Positions 3,265 through 21,317 are shown, numbered from the stretch's first letter. The stretch is 27,580 nt of DNA from a virus (IMGVR_UViG_2671180903_000020), one strand, 5' to 3'. The notes: generated by a model not told the origin, from the sequence alone. Made by a program: numbers and translations.

Positions 3265-3562
3265 TGTAATTTCCTTTTACTTTTTACAAAGCGTTTAATC
3301 ATGGCTGATTATCTCTAAGCGTAGTAACAGCCTTGTGCGAAACATGTTACCAAATCGCCATTTCAGTGTATCCGCAGTTAGGCTGCCACTTCAAGGATTC
3401 CTAATTACATGGTACGTAAGCGTAAAATCCCGTTGGTTGGCGGGTAATAACTCTGATCAAATCTCCCTTGTCTTTTGCTCTTACGTATGCAGCTCTTGTG
3501 TATTCAACCCAGGCCTCCAGTTCAGCAATACGCTTACTTCCATCCGAGATAACACCTTCTAC

Positions 3563-3814: not shown

Positions 3815-4032
3815 TTCGAACCTCTCTGTTTACTGATAAGCTCCAGATCCTCCTGGCAACTTGCACAAGTCCGACAACCCTGAACGACCAAGCGTCTTCG
3901 TTCATCTATGGGATCGCCACACTCACAACAATGAGTGGCAGATATAGTCTGGTAGTTCAGACGACGCATTTTTATTGCTGTATTGCGCTGTAATTCTTCA
4001 ATTTCTGATGCTGAATCAATGATGTCCGCCAT
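3811..4032 (-). CDS. orf73: TraR/DksA-family C4 zinc-finger protein (73 aa), lambda Orf73-like
   Basis: CCECGDPIDERRRLVVQGCRTCASCQ = CxxC-17-CxxC spacing typical of TraR/DksA; 73 aa as in lambda Orf73. Confidence 0.75.
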   Translation of the reverse strand: MADIIDSASEIEELQRNTAIKMRRLNYQTISATHCCECGDPIDERRRLVVQGCRTCASCQEDLELISKQRGSK

Positions 4033-4083
4033 CTTTCATTAATCCCTGAATTGTTGGTTAATACGCTTGAGGGTGAATGCGAA

Positions 4084-4108
4084 TAATAAAAAAGGAGCCT
4101 GTAGCTCC
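4084..4108 (-). terminator. Rho-independent terminator-like hairpin (GGAGC-tacag-GCTCC followed by T7 on minus strand)
   Basis: Read directly from sequence between the 93-aa gene and orf73. Confidence 0.4.
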
Positions 4109-4130
4109 CTGATGATTTTGCTTTTCATGT

Positions 4131-4412
4131 TCACCGTTCCTTAAAGACGCCGTTTAACATACCGATTGCCAGACTTAAGTGAGTCGGTGTGAATCCCATC
4201 AGCGTTACCGTTTCGCGGTGCTTCTTCAGTACGCTACGGCAAATGTCATCGACGTTTTTATCCGGAAACTGCTGTCTGGCTTTTTTGATTTCAGAATTAG
4301 CCTGACGGGCAATACTGCGAAGGGCGTTTTCTTGCTGAGGTGTCATTGAACAAGTCCCATGTCGGCAAGCATAAGCACACAGAATATGAAGCTCGCTGCC
4401 AGAAAAATGCAT
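4131..4412 (-). CDS. Hypothetical protein (93 aa)
   Basis: ORF in track, co-oriented with early-left operon; family not recognised. Confidence 0.45.
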   Translation of the reverse strand: MHFSGSELHILCAYACRHGTCSMTPQQENALRSIARQANSEIKKARQQFPDKNVDDICRSVLKKHRETVTLMGFTPTHLSLAIGMLNGVFKER

Positions 4413-4422
4413 TCAGTGGTTG

Positions 4423-4620
4423 TCATACCTGGTCTCTCTCATCTGCTTCTGCTTCTGCTTTCGCCACCATCATTTCCAGCTTTTGTGAAAGGGATGTTGC
4501 GAACGTATGAAATTCTTCGTCTGTTTCTACTGGTATTGGCACAAACCTGACTCCAATTTGAGCGAGGCTATGTGCCATCCCGATACTCGTTCTTAATTCA
4601 ACAGGAGATGCTTTGTGCAT
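4423..4620 (-). CDS. Small protein (65 aa) at the lambda orf63 position
   Basis: 28-nt overlap with the next gene, the same overlap I recall for lambda orf63/orf60a; positional call only. Confidence 0.45.
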   Translation of the reverse strand: MHKASPVELRTSIGMAHSLAQIGVRFVPIPVETDEEFHTFATSLSQKLEMMVAKAEAEADERDQV

Positions 4621-4781
4621 ACAGCCCCTCGCTTATTATTTATCTCTTCAGCCAGCCGCTGTGCTTTCAGTGGATTTCGGATAACAGAAAGGCCGGGAAA
4701 TACCCAGCCTCGCTTTGTAACGGAGTAGACGAAAGTGATCGTGCCTACCCGGATATTATCGTGAGGATGCTTCATTACCAT
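4593..4781 (-). CDS. Small protein (about 60 aa) at the lambda orf60a position; start may be GTG 4778 or ATG 4775
   Basis: Immediately downstream of exo with overlapping stop/start; positional call only. Confidence 0.45.
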
Positions 4782-5452
4782 TGCTCCCCATATACAAAAC
4801 CAATTTCAGCCAGTGCCTCGTCCATTTTTTCGATGAACTCCGGCACCATCTCGTCAAAACTCGCCATGTACTTTTCATTCCGCTCAATCACGACATAATG
4901 CAGGCCTTCACGCTTCATGCGCGGGTCATAGTTGGCAAAGTACCAGGCATCTTTTCGTGTCACCCACATGCTGTACTGCACCTGGGCCATGTAAGCCGAT
5001 TTTATGGCCTCGAAACCACCGAGCCGGAACTTCATGAAATCCCGGGAGGTAAACGGGCATTTCAGCTCAAGGCCGTTGCCGTCACTGCATAAACCATCGG
5101 GAGAGCAGGCGGTGCGCATACTTTCGTCGCGATAGATGATCGGGGATTCAGTAACATTCACGCCGGAAGTGAACTCAAAGAGGGTTCTGGCGTCGTTCTC
5201 GTACTGTTTTCCCCAGGCCAGAGCCTTAGCGTTAACTTCCGGAGCCACACCGGTGCAAACCTCAGCCAGCAGGGTGTGGAAGTAGGACATTTTCATGTCA
5301 GGCCACTTCTTTCCTGATCGGGGTTTTGCTATTACGTTGTGAATTTCTGAAGCTGTGATGACGCCGAGCCGTAATTTGTGCCACGCATCATCTCCCTGCT
5401 CGATAGCTCTCACGTCGATCCCAGTACGCTGCAGGATAATGTCCGGTGTCAT
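4775..5452 (-). CDS. exo: Lambda exonuclease (Red alpha, 225 aa)
   Basis: Protein [65 protein letters not shown]... matches lambda Exo. Confidence 0.95.
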
Positions 5453-6239: not shown

Positions 6240-6536
6240 TTATACCTCTGAATCAATATCAACCTGGTGGTGAGCAATGGTTTCAACCATGTACCGGATG
6301 TGTTCTGCCATGCGTTCCTGAAACTCAACATCGTCATCAAACGCACGGGTAATGGCTTTTTTGCTGGCCCCGTGGCGTTGCAAATGATCGATGCATAGCG
6401 ATTCAAACAGGTGCTGGGGCAGGCCTTTTTCCATGTCGTCTGCCAGTTCTGCCTCTTTCTCTTCACGGGCGATCTGCTGGTAGTGACGCGCCCAGCTCTG
6501 AGCCTCAAGACGATCCTGAATGTAATAAGCGTTCAT
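6240..6536 (-). CDS. gam: Gam, RecBCD inhibitor (98 aa short form only)
   Basis: Protein [60 protein letters not shown]... matches lambda GamS; upstream in-frame region reaches a stop without another start codon. Confidence 0.9.
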
Positions 6537-6590
6537 GGCTGAACTCCTGAAAATGGCTGTGAAAATATCGCCCGCGAAATGCCAGGCTGA

Positions 6591-6755
6591 TTAGGAAAAC
6601 AGGAAAGGGGGGTAGTGAATGCTTTTGCTTGATCTCAGTTTCTGTATTAATATCCATTTTTTATAAGCGTCGACGGCCTCACGAAACATCTTTTCATCGC
6701 CAATAAAAGTGGCGATAGTGAATTTAGTCTGGATAGCCATAATTGTTTGATCCAT
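6591..6755 (-). CDS. kil: Kil (host cell-division inhibitor), 54 aa from internal Met of the tracked ORF
   Basis: [43 protein letters not shown]... resembles lambda Kil; start ATG 6755 overlaps the 3' end of cIII by 32 nt as in lambda. Confidence 0.75.
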
Positions 6756-16107: not shown

Positions 16108-16292
16108 ACGCCACAATTCAAACGATACCAGAGCTTCTTATCCAGACACGAGGAAATCAGACCGAAGTGGCGAGGATGCTTTCCTGCGCAAGAGGAACAG
16201 TGCTCAAGTACAACCGAGACAGCAAAGGCGAGCGTCACGTAATAGTTAACGGCGTCCTGATGGTCAAACAGGGCAAGAGGGGAAGACCATGA
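16104..16292 (+). CDS. NinH-like small DNA-binding protein (62 aa)
   Basis: ...GNQTEVARMLSCARGTVLKYNRDSKGERHVIVNGVLMV... resembles lambda NinH. Confidence 0.6.
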   Translation: MNATIQTIPELLIQTRGNQTEVARMLSCARGTVLKYNRDSKGERHVIVNGVLMVKQGKRGRP

Positions 16293-16912
16293 GACTCGAA
16301 AGCGTAGCTAAATTTCACTCGCCAAAAAGCCCGATGATGAGCGACTCACCACGGGCTACGGCTTCTGACTCTCTTTCCGGTACTGATGTGATGGCTGCTA
16401 TGGGGATGGCGCAATCACAAGCCGGATTCGGAATGGCTGCATTCTGCGGTAAGCATGAACTCAGCCAGAACGACAAACAAAAGGCTATCAACTATCTGAT
16501 GCAATTTGCACACAAGGTATCGGGGAAATACCGTGGTGTGGCAAAGCTCGAAGGAAATACTAAGGCAAAGGTACTGCAAGTGCTCGCAACATTCGCTTAT
16601 GCGGATTATTGCCGTAGTGCCGCTACGCCGGGCGCAAGATGCAGAGATTGCCACGGTACAGGCCGTGCGGTTGATATAGCCAAAACAGAGCAGTGGGGGA
16701 TAGTTGCTGAGAAAGAGTGCGGAAGATGTAAAGGCGTCGGTTATTCAAGAATGCCAGCAAGCGCCGCATATCGCGCTGTGACGATGCTAATCCCAAACCT
16801 TACCCAACCCACCTGGTCACGCACTGTTAAGCCGCTGTATGACGCTCTGGTTGTGCAATGCCACAAGGAAGAGTCAATCGCAGACAACATTTTGAATGCG
16901 ATCACACGTTAG
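16289..16912 (+). CDS. Q: Late-gene antiterminator Q (lambda type, 207 aa)
   Basis: MRLESVAKFHSPKSPMMSDSPRATASDSLSGTDVMAAMGMAQSQAGFGMAAFCGKHELSQNDKQKAINYLMQFAHKVSGKYRGVAKLEG... matches lambda Q. Confidence 0.9.
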   Translation: MRLESVAKFHSPKSPMMSDSPRATASDSLSGTDVMAAMGMAQSQAGFGMAAFCGKHELSQNDKQKAINYLMQFAHKVSGKYRGVAKLEGNTKAKVLQVLATFAYADYCRSAATPGARCRDCHGTGRAVDIAKTEQWGIVAEKECGRCKGVGYSRMPASAAYRAVTMLIPNLTQPTWSRTVKPLYDALVVQCHKEESIADNILNAITR

Positions 16913-16954
16913 CGCCATGATTGCCACGGATGGCAACATATTAACGGCATAATA

Positions 16955-17010
16955 TTGACTTTTTGAATAACTTTGGGGAAACTTGACACCAATAATGGGC
17001 GTTTTTTACA
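16955..17010 (+). promoter_or_regulatory. Late promoter pR' with Q-binding/qut region (by similarity to lambda)
   Basis: TTGACTTTTTGAATAACTTTGGGGAAACTTGACACCAATAATGGGCG resembles the lambda pR' TTGACT...TTGACT arrangement directly downstream of Q. Confidence 0.5.
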
Positions 17011-17149
17011 TGTCATTGATGAGTCTCAATAACCTGCCGCCGAGTAGTTTTTATGCTCTGAATTGTATTTGTGTAGTAAACATGCTGACTGCAATGTAAT
17101 AGAGTTTTTTTAGCCTGTAACCTCTTGACGGCATTGAATTGCTTTTGTT

Positions 17150-17908
17150 ATGAGTTGTAAGCCAATGTTATCATCTTGTATTGGGGTGGTTATGAAGGAT
17201 GGTGCGCTGCTCAGGAGTTCTTCACTTTTTATTGCCTACATGGGATGCCTTGGATGGGGGAGTGCTTATTTCTATGGATGGGGTACTTCTTTTTACTACG
17301 GCTTCCCATGGTGGATTGTAGGTGCAGGTGTTGATGATGTTGCCAGAAGTTTATTTTTTGCAGTTATCGTCATTGCTATATTTCTTATCGGTTGGGGTAT
17401 TGGTGTTGTATTCTTTTTCGCAGTGAAAAGAAAACATTCTATGCAAGAGCTAAATGTATTTCGCCTTTATTTTGCTGTGGAATTATTGTTTGTGCCGGCA
17501 ATTATTGAGTTTTCTATATTGAGACAGAAGATTCAGGTACCTCTTTTGCTACTGTCAGCAGCGATTGCGCTGGCGGTTACAATTTCGATAAGATCTTATG
17601 GGCGATTTTTATCGGTATCATGCTTCTATGATAAGCCATTTATAAAAAAACATTTTTTTGAGATTGTGATGATTGCTTTTGTGGCATATTTCTGGCTTTT
17701 TTCATTTCTGACAGGATATTACAAACCGCAGTTTAAGAAAGAATATGAAATGATTAATTATAATGATGGTTGGTATTATGTTCTTGCTCGTTATGATAAT
17801 TGTCTGGTTTTGTCTACTTCTTTCAATGCAGGTAGTAAAAGGTTTGTCATTTATCAATCAGCACAAGATAAGAATCTTCAGGTTGATATTGTAAGGACCA
17901 GAATTTAA
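17150..17908 (+). CDS. AT-rich multi-pass membrane protein of unknown function (238-252 aa; likely start ATG 17192 after GGGGTGG)
   Basis: At least four hydrophobic helix-length segments (e.g. LFFAVIVIAIFLIGWGIGVVFFFAV, VPLLLLSAAIALAVTISI, FFEIVMIAFVAYFWLFSFLTG) then a ~60-aa soluble tail; GC far below flanking phage genes. Confidence 0.6.
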   Translation: MSCKPMLSSCIGVVMKDGALLRSSSLFIAYMGCLGWGSAYFYGWGTSFYYGFPWWIVGAGVDDVARSLFFAVIVIAIFLIGWGIGVVFFFAVKRKHSMQELNVFRLYFAVELLFVPAIIEFSILRQKIQVPLLLLSAAIALAVTISIRSYGRFLSVSCFYDKPFIKKHFFEIVMIAFVAYFWLFSFLTGYYKPQFKKEYEMINYNDGWYYVLARYDNCLVLSTSFNAGSKRFVIYQSAQDKNLQVDIVRTRI

Positions 17909-18041
17909 TTGGCTGCATAAATAATATTTTAAGTTGCAAGTTGGCTATTCGTAGGAATAGAACCTTAGGCATGCTGAATGCGTTTTCTGAACATTGTTTT
18001 ATAAACTGTGTCTGCTTGCTGTTGTGATCCTGCTTTTAGTG

Positions 18042-18152
18042 ATGGTGATGATGGATTTCACCAGCAGGATAATGTTGGTACTGACTGATGGCGCTCTGGT
18101 CTGTGGCATTGTGGTATTGCTGTGGCCGATGATGAAAGAACAGAATGAATAA
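18042..18152 (+). CDS. Possible small hydrophobic peptide (36 aa); speculative
   Basis: Hand translation MVMMDFTSRIMLVLTDGALVCGIVVLLWPMMKEQNE*; no clear Shine-Dalgarno. Confidence 0.2.
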   Translation: MVMMDFTSRIMLVLTDGALVCGIVVLLWPMMKEQNE

Positions 18153-18338
18153 TTCTTGACTTTTTTGTTTACTGTTTATTAAAAAATCAACCGCATGGTG
18201 AATCCTCCTTGGAGGGGCTAAATGATCGAGTTTTAAGGGCACGTAGCGAGTTCTGTTTGATCATTGCAGAACTTAGCGGGAGGCGCCATGCGTACATCAC
18301 TAATGTTATTTCCTTCTATCATTTTCCTTGTGAGTTCT

Positions 18339-18365
18339 GGCTGCGCATGGCGCGGCCTTTTTTTT
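18339..18365 (+). terminator. Rho-independent terminator (GGCTGCGC-atg-GCGCGGCC stem with one G-U pair, then T8)
   Basis: Read directly; lies about 90 nt upstream of nanS-p. Confidence 0.55.
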
Positions 18366-18451
18366 ATGACCTGCCACTGGCAGATGGTCATCCTGTGATT
18401 TGATTCCGGTTCCGGCTTTTTAACTCTGTTCCTGTACACGGGAGAAATTCG

Positions 18452-20389
18452 ATGTCGATTAAACATTATGATGTTGTCAGGGCGGCGTCGCCGTCAGATC
18501 TTGCGGAAAAGCTGACACACAAACTGAAAGAGGGCTGGCAGCCGTTTGGTAGTCCTGTGGCCATAACCCCTTATACCCTGATGCAGGCGATTGCCGCGGA
18601 GGGGGATGTGACCACGCCAGTGGTTGTGCCCGGCACGGGGGATGGTGGCTATCCGGGAGTGGTCACCACGGAGCCAGATTATTACTACGTTATTCCACTG
18701 GCCGGGCAGTCGAACGGCATGGCTTACGGTGAGGGGCTTCCTCTGCCGCAGACATATGACCGTCCTGACCCGCGTATAAAGCAACTGGCTCGTCGCAGCA
18801 CAGTGACGCCGGATGGCGCTCCCTGTAAATATAACGACATTATTCCGGCAGACCACTGTCTGCATGATGTACAGGACATGAGCCGTCTTAACCATCCGAA
18901 AGCTGACCTGTCGAAAGGTCAGTACGGAACCGTGGGGCAGGGGCTGCATATTGCCAAAAAGCTGCTGCCGTTTATACCGGCGAATGCGGGTATTCTTCTG
19001 GTTCCGTGCTGCCGTGGTGGTTCAGCTTTCACCACCGGGGCAGATGGAACATACAGTGACGTGACCGGTGCCTCAGAGAGTTCTACCCGCTGGGGTGTGG
19101 GCAGGCCGCTGTATAAGGATCTCATCGGTCGTACAAAAGCCGCGCTGGCAAAGAACCCGAAAAATGTGCTGCTTGCCGTGGTGTGGATGCAGGGGGAATT
19201 TGACTTTGACGGAACGCCAGCAAATCACACAGCCCGTTTTACAGAAGTAGTGGAACAATATCGTACGGACCTTGCAGATATGGTGGGACAGTGCGCTGGT
19301 GGTTCTGCTGACGGTGTTCCCTGGATATGTGGAGACACAACTTATTTCTGGAAGCAGAAGAGCGAATCCACTTACCAGACGGTGTACGGCAGTTACAAAA
19401 ACAAAACGGAAAAGAATATTCACTTTGTGCCGTTCATGACCGATGAGAACGGAGCAAATGTCCCGACGAACAAACCGGAAGAAGACCCGGATATTCCGGC
19501 ATCAGGATATTACGGTGCGGCCTCCCGGACGTCGGCAAACTGGACGTCAGCAGACCGTGCGAGCCATTTCAGCTCATGGGCACGCAGGGGGATTATTTCT
19601 GACCGTCTTGCCTCAGCGATTCTTCTCCATGCAGGACGGACGGCTGAACTGGTGGGTGGGGAACAGGTTGTGATGCCGCCGGATGAGAAGCCGTCACCGG
19701 ACACACCATCAACACCGTCAACGGACGGGAAATCAGTGACAACGCTGCTTTATTACCGTGCAACAGAGTCAGGTGGTTTACTGAATCCGCAGGGATGGGG
19801 AGCTGAAGGAGGGCGTGCATTGGTAGTTGATGATGCAGGTGCTGCAGGAGGTAAGGCGCTGAGGTGGACCAAACAGACAGGAAGTTCCTCGTGGTTTATG
19901 CAGCATGATGTCGGTAATGGCGCAGACCTGCTGGAGAAGGGCGGGCTTATCAGTTGTCGTTTTAAAGTTGATGGCACACTGACAGCTAATCAGTACGCAC
20001 TGGCGCTGTACTGGCCGGTTTCTTCACTGCCTCAGGGCGTCACACTGGAAGGTAATGCCGGTCATAACCTGCTGGCGTCGTTTTACGTACAGAGCGATGC
20101 CACAGACCTTAATGTGATGTACCACAAGGGAAATGCTGGTCAGAACACGAAGCTGGGGTCATTCGGCGCATTTGATAACGAATGGCATACGCTGGGCTTC
20201 CGTTTTGCCGGTAACAACAGTATTGAGGTGACGCCGGTCATTGATGGTAAGGACGGGACGCCGTTCATGCTGTCACAGTCACCGGTCGGCACGTTTACGG
20301 CAGACAAATTGCGCGTGACCGATATCACTAGCGGTGCGACATATCCGGTGCTGATTGAAAGTATAACAGTGGAAGTGAATAACCCGTAA
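18452..20389 (+). CDS. nanS-p: Prophage sialate O-acetylesterase (NanS-p type, 645 aa)
   Basis: Recognised from memory as the esterase encoded downstream of stx in Stx phages; N-terminus MSIKHYDVVRAASPSDLAEKLTHKLKEGWQPFGSP; GGGAGA Shine-Dalgarno. Confidence 0.8.
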   Translation: MSIKHYDVVRAASPSDLAEKLTHKLKEGWQPFGSPVAITPYTLMQAIAAEGDVTTPVVVPGTGDGGYPGVVTTEPDYYYVIPLAGQSNGMAYGEGLPLPQTYDRPDPRIKQLARRSTVTPDGAPCKYNDIIPADHCLHDVQDMSRLNHPKADLSKGQYGTVGQGLHIAKKLLPFIPANAGILLVPCCRGGSAFTTGADGTYSDVTGASESSTRWGVGRPLYKDLIGRTKAALAKNPKNVLLAVVWMQGEFDFDGTPANHTARFTEVVEQYRTDLADMVGQCAGGSADGVPWICGDTTYFWKQKSESTYQTVYGSYKNKTEKNIHFVPFMTDENGANVPTNKPEEDPDIPASGYYGAASRTSANWTSADRASHFSSWARRGIISDRLASAILLHAGRTAELVGGEQVVMPPDEKPSPDTPSTPSTDGKSVTTLLYYRATESGGLLNPQGWGAEGGRALVVDDAGAAGGKALRWTKQTGSSSWFMQHDVGNGADLLEKGGLISCRFKVDGTLTANQYALALYWPVSSLPQGVTLEGNAGHNLLASFYVQSDATDLNVMYHKGNAGQNTKLGSFGAFDNEWHTLGFRFAGNNSIEVTPVIDGKDGTPFMLSQSPVGTFTADKLRVTDITSGATYPVLIESITVEVNNP

Positions 20390-21101: not shown

Positions 21102-21317
21102 ATGTACCAGATGGAAAAAATAACAACGGGTGTGTCATACACCACGTCAGCGGTGGGGACGGGATACTGGCTACTGCAGTTGCTGGACAAAGTCTCCCCA
21201 TCCCAGTGGGTGGCAATAGGCGTATTGGGTAGCCTGGTGTTTGGCTTGCTGACGTATCTGACAAACCTTTATTTCAAGATTAAAGAAGATAAGCGTAAGG
21301 CTGCGAGAGGTGAATAA
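21102..21317 (+). CDS. S: Pinholin, phage 21 S21 type (dual-start motif MYQM, 71/68 aa)
   Basis: ...[50 protein letters not shown] closely resembles S21 from memory. Confidence 0.85.

Follow-up and report, generated by a model that had tools for sequence, protein, structure and literature searches.

A TfpB/STM1630-family membrane protein gene in the pR′-proximal cargo slot of a lambdoid prophage

Genes and transcription signals between Q and the esterase gene

The window, that is the whole analyzed stretch of viral DNA (IMGVR_UViG_2671180903_000020, 27,580 nucleotides), carries an AT-rich gene for a predicted inner-membrane protein of the TfpB/STM1630 family between an antiterminator gene and a sialate O-acetylesterase gene. 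The open reading frame 17150–17908 (+), on which a preliminary description of this locus was based, is present in the window as listed, but its start had been placed too far upstream. The methionine at residue 15 of this frame (ATG 17192) is invariant in an alignment of 29 homologs, nearly all of which are 236–238 amino acids long, and the true coding sequence is therefore 17192–17908 (+), encoding 238 amino acids. The first 14 codons of the longer frame are consequently noncoding; the ATG at 17150 falls within a conserved −10-like element, and a Shine-Dalgarno-like GGGGTGG (17183–17189, +), read from the sequence, lies ahead of the conserved start codon. Besides the invariant methionine, the annotation of 17192–17908 is based on matches to phrog_1521, on PF27470 tags, on dN/dS ratios and on an AF2 model.

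As had been noted before, the gene is markedly poorer in GC than its flanks, with a value of 0.364 compared to 0.51 for the Q gene and 0.54 for the esterase gene. The GC content is 0.375 for the region 17031–18160 and 0.482 for the whole window, only 1.4% of all 717-nt segments are equally low in GC as the gene, and the minimum of the entire window is located inside it. The gene is under strong purifying selection, with dN/dS values of 0.053 and 0.089 against close alleles from E. albertii and Escherichia MOD1, and of 0.14–0.20 against the copies from ETEC, Shigella, and Salmonella.

The upstream boundary of the slot is formed by a lambda-type antiterminator Q (16289–16912, +; PF03589, E = 1.2e-57), the 3′ end of which matches, together with pR′, phages of the HK97/mEp234 type. 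Alignment to the annotated pR′/qut region of mEp234 predicts a pR′/qut-like late promoter, TTGACT-N17-GAAACT, at 16955–16983 (+), with a −10 hexamer (GAAACT) that deviates from the mEp234 sequence TAAATT in two bases. It is followed at 17031–17052 (+) by what the alignment identifies as the degraded remnant of an 82-type terminator, which also marks the left edge of a cassette common to phage 434 and E. albertii, as DNA homology with 434 starts at about 17031 and homology with E. albertii at 17031. Compared to the terminator of phage 434 (locus 3482–3507), three stem changes were found and four Ts are lost in the window, and the predicted folding energy is −4.6 kcal/mol (z −0.2, with a different pairing) vs. 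−13.3 kcal/mol (z −3.2) for the intact element of 434. The absence of a recognizable tR′ hairpin ahead of the gene, as originally described, is thus borne out, since no such structure was found between pR′ and the gene apart from this degraded copy and the sole terminator-like hairpin in the region 16700–18600 is located at 18339–18365. The leader between pR′ and the gene showed no special RNA structure (z 0.05).

It had been suggested that the gene is expressed either with the late genes or from its own promoter, and the signals described here leave room for both. Because the intervening terminator is degraded, pR′ transcripts may read into the gene in this prophage, and since the −10 element of pR′ is altered as well, late-promoter control of the cargo may differ between prophages sharing the same cassette. 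A candidate sigma-70 promoter belonging to the gene itself is found at 17125–17154 (+), consisting of TTGACG (17125–17130), an 18-nt spacer, and an extended −10-like TGt-TATGAG (17146–17154). A generic promoter scan returned no excess over the shuffled expectation, and the candidate is based on conservation. In the copy on ETEC elt plasmids, DNA homology is restricted to the gene and about 70 nt upstream of it, beginning at 17121, and both TTGACG (17125–17130) and TGT-TATG (17146–17152) are kept there while neighboring bases diverge. Expression from an own promoter is therefore plausible, given that the −35/extended −10-like element has stayed with the gene in the ETEC plasmid copies as well. 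The candidate −10 is overlapped by a TTGT-N6-TTGT sequence (17145–17158), which is recorded for phage 434 as a CII-binding consensus, one of several such sites assigned there by consensus only.

Downstream of the gene, a small membrane protein of 52 amino acids with a DUF3927 domain is encoded at 17994–18152 (+; TTG start, “TciB-like”; PF13064, E = 3.4e-14; phrog_1470). This small gene was found only in the window, in phages 434 and 2B8, in O26, and in the contig JAIITD010000172.1, with degraded matches in E. albertii (in two pieces) and Escherichia MOD1. It was considered as an obligate partner of the TfpB/STM1630 protein and rejected as such, as the two co-occur only within the Escherichia prophage cassette. 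Likewise, the idea of a “tci locus” in phage 434 had to be dismissed: tciA/B/C are genes of phage P1, and the “TciB” label in 434 reflects nothing but DUF3927 homology.

The block is closed by an element resembling the PasD/STnc100 sRNA (18163–18368, +; RF02076, 37.7 bits, E = 3.7e-6, a score below the gathering threshold) that includes a strong intrinsic terminator (stem 18339–18357 plus T8; −16 kcal/mol for 18339–18365). No Rfam family reached its gathering score over the whole window. According to a 2026 preprint, pasD immediately precedes the esterase gene in phage 2B8, whose sequence agrees with that of the window at 98.6% identity in this region, and, judged from this match, the element appears to correspond to the PasD sRNA. 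This is in line with an earlier description of the region 3′ of pR′ as a moron insertion site, in which the moron is separated by sRNA genes from a conserved ORF farther downstream (Tree et al., 2014). A small ORF at 18209–18403 (+), which the phage 434 annotation names a “putative membrane protein” (CPT_434_70), extends across both the sRNA-like element and the terminator and is probably not a real coding sequence. The downstream boundary, which is common to Stx phages, is a NanS-p-like sialate O-acetylesterase gene (18452–20389, +; SASA/DUF1737/DUF6645; PF08410, PF03629, and PF20350) that is about 83% identical to the Stx-phage yjhS gene from about 18459 on. It is followed by a DUF1378 gene, an S21 holin, and a lysozyme gene, the true holin at 21102–21317 matching PF04971. 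tRNA genes were not found in the window.

Cargo status and distribution in prophages

Comparison of the junction between Q and the holin across related phages shows a variable slot in which the gene is by no means universal. The Stx1 phage BP-4795 has stxA1B1 in the equivalent position, its Q gene being followed by stxA1B1, a small ORF, the esterase gene yjhS, DUF1378, and the holin gene, in agreement with the earlier placement of the gene at the stx locus. Phage mEp234 has the same type of Q and pR′ without the cassette, while in phage 434 and O157:H7 an identical protein (CPT_434_68 and WP_001302581.1, respectively; 100% over 238 amino acids) is encoded after LpxR, YlcG, and an antiterminator of the Q82 type. 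Two hallmarks of a lambdoid moron in the sense of Juhala and Hendrix, presence or absence at the same position and a deviant base composition, were observed. With regard to a third, a promoter and terminator of its own for expression from the repressed prophage, the gene has the candidate promoter element at 17125–17154 and the strong terminator at 18339–18365. The absence from mEp234, the other Q type in 434 and O157:H7, stx in BP-4795, and the low GC content together support the view of the gene as horizontally acquired, optional cargo of the pR′-proximal slot, and the corresponding proposal of the preliminary description can thus be upheld.

In a collection of 50,697 phage records, a gene for the protein was found in just two distinct phages, 434 and 2B8. 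The esterase gene is common to 339 of these records, mostly Stx phages, and none of those Stx phages contains a TfpB/STM1630 gene. The gene and stx were never found together and are alternative cargo in this phage collection. In complete E. coli genomes, the region 16900–18460 was detected at a coverage of at least 80% in 682 out of 5426. The gene alone has matches in 1197 of these 5426 genomes, 679 of them at an identity of at least 99%, with up to four copies per genome. Carriers include O157:H7, O26, O103, and O111 strains, in which multiple copies are frequent. A protein with 100% identity was also found on the aforementioned JAIITD010000172.1, a 3-kb contig of a Veillonella MAG, the DNA of which is 98.9% identical to 16279–18567 of the window; this contig must almost certainly be regarded as part of an E. 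coli prophage that was assigned to the wrong bin.

Family membership and relatives outside phages

The family had not been recognized when the locus was first described, a gap that is closed by several matches. The protein is a member of the TfpB/STM1630 family, which is catalogued as Pfam PF27470, PHROG 1521, and RefSeq “STM1630 family”. PHROG 1521, to which no function is assigned, matches it with E = 2e-154, and the cluster of 100% identical proteins (P0001) as well as all 103 homolog matches in a large protein collection bear the precomputed tag PF27470 (“TfpB”). A family profile search retrieved the Moraxella “protein tfpB” (P0241; E = 6e-63), a tblastn search against M. bovis yielded E = 1e-19, and some E. 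coli copies are named “STM1630 family protein” in RefSeq. The identity of the Salmonella relative follows from a published STM1630 deletion primer, which encodes NSSMLLAYLGGLGWG, the N-terminus of homolog P0075; P0075 is therefore STM1630. According to a supplementary gene table, STM1630 has a length of 717 bp and adjoins sseJ. The search for remote homologs thus led to Moraxella TfpB and Salmonella STM1630 as relatives and revealed no homology to lysis or structural proteins.

A copy of Pfam without the PF27470 model, NCBIfam, PADLOC, and a PDB sequence search yielded no match to the protein, and divergent family members provided no Pfam link either. The family is small: at 50% identity, it comprises 72 representatives out of 1.84 billion proteins. 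Its members share an architecture of about 236–261 amino acids with an N-terminal aromatic motif, multiple TM helices, and a C-terminal beta domain, of which the aromatic motif and a C-terminal block can still be made out in members at about 12–29% identity. The literature retrieved under the name “TfpB” deals mostly with chemistry, anaesthesia, or an unrelated type IV pilus ATPase. To our knowledge, the function of tfpB has never been established since it was first seen in Moraxella around 1990. The protein is accordingly a catalogued member of a functionally uncharacterized family and nothing new in kind.

Homologs are carried by 156 plasmids, 106 of which are Shigella pINV plasmids, including pWR100 of strain M90T. 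In ETEC, a homolog is located about 870 bp from eltAB in divergent orientation, with STb and EAST1 nearby, and in Salmonella it lies between steB and sseJ. The homolog of Glaesserella parasuis is directly adjacent to a cdtABC islet, the insertion site of which lies between tsaB and tgt, and the one of Mesocricetibacter is convergent with an RTX toxin-HlyB-HlyD operon. M. bovis encodes a homolog of 261 amino acids between two inverted pilin gene segments, and the truncated copy of M. lacunata is flanked by a Piv-type recombinase gene and pilin genes; these surroundings of Moraxella tfpB we take to be the classical pilin-inversion locus. Other copies from Pasteurellaceae and Neisseriaceae form single-gene islets between housekeeping genes, and about half of the non-enteric copies stand alone. 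In these comparisons, for which a trimmed alignment was used to locate divergent homologs since the most divergent alignment was too variable, no neighboring gene conserved across genera was found. The observed adjacency to virulence loci may only reflect the clustering of AT-rich foreign DNA.

On Shigella pINV and on one E. coli plasmid, the homolog is preceded at a distance of 0.6–1 kb by fragments of IS110-family transposases (4031–4417 and 4337–5035 of the respective loci), in an order reminiscent of piv-tfpB in Moraxella. A specific linkage to Piv/IS110 was rejected, as identity between the Shigella fragment and Piv is as low as 27.6% and the IS110 gene on the P0090 plasmid gave no match to it, and the fragments near the plasmid homologs are probably IS clutter. 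On pWR100, an ORF of 138 amino acids (6257–6673 of the locus, +) with a signal-peptide-like N-terminus and without a Pfam match is located about 540 bp downstream of the homolog. In Salmonella, STMMW_16291 is a neighboring transporter gene and not the family member itself.

Predicted topology, possible role and comparison with known systems

An AF2 prediction from an enteric-only alignment was poor (pLDDT 59.7) and improved to a pLDDT of 76.8 and a pTM of 0.69 when sequences from Neisseria, Mannheimia, and Moraxella were added. This model contains helices at 3–36, 47–78, 89–111, 116–136, and 155–181 and five strands between residues 187 and 232, which agrees with the hydrophobic segments and the soluble C-terminal tail of the preliminary description. 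In 48 family members, the mean number of K and R residues is 1.25 for the N-terminus, 2.25 for loop 2–3, and 3.38 for loop 4–5, compared to 0.08 for loop 1–2 and 0.33 for loop 3–4. Based on this distribution (positive-inside rule), the N-terminus is predicted to be cytoplasmic and to be followed by five TM helices, which would place the aromatic motif and the C-terminal beta domain of about 55 amino acids in the periplasm. The motif, GWGSAYFYGWGxSFYYGFPWW, is strongly conserved and would be situated at the periplasmic end of TM1. Invariant residues of the family are mostly aromatic or glycine, in addition to one Arg-Ser pair, and conserved residues of a catalytic type are not evident in the family alignment. 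This pattern suggests that the protein is more likely to bind an envelope partner than to act as a catalyst. Comparison of the model with PDB and BFVD yielded no structural relative.

Most of what can be said about a possible role comes from published work on STM1630 of Salmonella Typhimurium, which lends indirect support, by analogy, to the earlier suggestion of a virulence-associated factor. STM1630 is bound by H-NS, belongs to the SPI-2-co-regulated virulence genes, and has a TSS and a −10 box of its own. In strain 4/74, expression was observed in macrophages as well as in SPI-2-inducing medium, whereas two SNPs in the −10 box silence the gene in ST313. Mutants were attenuated in calf and chick models. 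Deletion has no effect on growth in LB; it increased intramacrophage replication in 4/74 and had no effect on it in D23580. A deletion was hypermotile in a screen (1.72-fold in swimming, 1.62-fold in swarming), and in a follow-up with clean deletions the motility effect of STM1630 was not singled out. These data are modest and in part unconfirmed, and they concern a homolog with 46% identity to the protein encoded in the window.

Taken together, the explanation we tentatively prefer, without regarding it as established, is that of a TfpB/STM1630 moron encoding a periplasm-facing inner-membrane binding protein that would serve lysogenic conversion and modulate host-associated fitness. According to this explanation, an AT-rich moron, accompanied by the DUF3927 mini-protein and a PasD-type sRNA, fills the pR′-proximal cargo slot of a lambdoid prophage. 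The gene would probably be transcribed from its own promoter and, by analogy to the Salmonella homolog, probably be silenced by H-NS and become active in the lysogen when conditions resemble those in the host, and pR′ transcripts could also enter it in this prophage. Its product would bind an envelope partner from the periplasmic side rather than catalyze a reaction, and its role in the lysogen might lie in colonization, motility, or the restraint of intracellular growth, as extrapolated from STM1630. A part in phage lysis or morphogenesis is not assigned to the gene. The interpretation originally given to the locus is thereby partly supported, and the observation on which it was built is confirmed with a corrected start codon.

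Among the alternatives, superinfection exclusion or abortive infection, which had also been proposed initially, is unlikely but still deserves some weight. The protein would then block DNA entry or kill infected cells like HK97 gp15, P22 SieA/SieB, T4 Imm, or lambda RexB, and the moron position in a prophage, the inner-membrane location, and a promoter that is probably active in the lysogen would all be suitable for such a function, as would the fact that defense genes are often AT-rich cargo of many kinds of mobile elements. However, no PADLOC family was matched at E ≤ 0.1, Pfam and NCBIfam gave no match, no partner gene is conserved, and the Salmonella homolog is regulated together with SPI-2 virulence genes. 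The distribution points in the same direction, with just 434 and 2B8 among the 50,697 phage records compared to the 156 plasmids (including the 106 Shigella pINV plasmids) and numerous islets in chromosomes, so that most copies reside on virulence plasmids or in islets. The analysis yielded no positive support for a phage-defense role.

The protein might also support neighboring exotoxin, effector, or pilin loci for example by envelope remodeling, by vesiculation or release, or by growth restraint while the toxin is expressed, and might in this prophage have remained in the toxin slot without a toxin. Such a role is improbable. Homologs do adjoin eltAB, steB/sseJ, cdtABC, the RTX toxin-HlyB-HlyD operon, and the Moraxella pilin genes, and the slot occupied here is that of stx. 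Nevertheless, no toxin gene was found between Q and the lysis genes of the window, the sequenced Stx phages do not carry the gene, many copies are solitary islets, and joint mobility of foreign DNA would suffice as a null explanation. The neighboring toxins use type I, type II, or type III secretion or phage lysis, and because these routes are unrelated to one another, a direct role in toxin export is unlikely. The more general notion of the TfpB/STM1630 protein as a novel-fold companion of acquired virulence loci (AB5, CDT, RTX, type III effectors, pilin) across four families (Enterobacteriaceae, Pasteurellaceae, Moraxellaceae, and Neisseriaceae) seems rather doubtful as well. If it were true, bacteria expressing such virulence factors might, for example, need an envelope-level brake or remodeler, and the prophage copy would represent a conserved virulence-modulating conversion gene instead of random cargo.

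Very little speaks for an accessory role in lysis, for example as an antiholin-like membrane protein, or one controlling the time of lysis, that is produced along with the late gene products. The gene does lie downstream of pR′ in the late transcription unit and upstream of the holin and endolysin genes, but it is separated from the lysis cassette by the strong terminator, the sRNA element, and the esterase gene. With these elements intervening, and with many non-phage contexts in which lysis genes are absent, a lysis role is unlikely; in addition, no holin family was matched and related phages lyse without the gene. An accessory factor of type IV pili, as the name TfpB suggests, is hardly credible either. 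The founding member is indeed located inside the Moraxella pilin-inversion locus, and many host genera of the family are piliated mucosal bacteria, yet no pilin or pilus-assembly genes were found in the window or beside the enteric, Pasteurellaceae, and Neisseriaceae copies examined, the association was seen only in Moraxella, and the published “TfpB” motor ATPase of Acinetobacter is an unrelated protein. That the gene is a functionless, decaying hitch-hiker, as the lack of a known function, the truncated M. lacunata copy, and the inactivated promoter in Salmonella ST313 could indicate, is highly improbable in view of dN/dS values of 0.05–0.20, motifs conserved down to 20% identity in three bacterial families, and the 679 E. 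coli genomes with a copy at least 99% identical.

What was found is a hypothetical protein that is already catalogued, encoded in a moron slot that has been well described, and no sign of a new mechanism emerged. Still, the family is present in about a fifth of the complete E. coli genomes, the gene sits where Shiga-toxin phages carry their toxin, and since phage 434 with its identical protein grows on E. coli K-12, the function of the family is directly testable in a simple genetic system.

Among the closest known systems, phage 434 CPT_434_68 and O157:H7 WP_001302581.1 represent a 100% identical protein in the same cassette of the gene and DUF3927. They differ from the window by LpxR, YlcG, a Q82-type antiterminator, and an intact terminator, whereas the window has a lambda-type Q and a degraded terminator, and in O157:H7 and O26 no esterase gene follows the cassette. 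STM1630 of Salmonella Typhimurium (SL1344_1560; 46% identity, 238 amino acids) shares the same motifs and is likewise an AT-rich single gene with its own promoter between acquired virulence genes. In contrast to the gene in the window, it resides in a chromosomal steB-sseJ islet and not in a prophage late region, and the expression and mutant data are those of STM1630. TfpB of Moraxella bovis and M. lacunata, the founder of PF27470, is homologous over nearly the full length at 27–29% identity, including the aromatic motif and the C-terminal beta domain, but belongs to an invertible pilin segment beside the Piv recombinase gene and has 261 amino acids. HK97 gp15, P22 SieA/SieB, and lambda RexB are comparable as small to medium-sized inner-membrane proteins encoded by accessory cargo of prophages. 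This is a functional analogy only, since no sequence or fold similarity was found and these proteins are confined to phages, whereas the TfpB/STM1630 family is mostly found on plasmids and in chromosomal islets. Finally, stxAB shares the insertion position between Q/pR′ and the yjhS/nanS-p esterase gene as well as the character of low-GC foreign cargo, with the difference that Stx is a secreted AB5 toxin and the TfpB/STM1630 protein an integral membrane protein.
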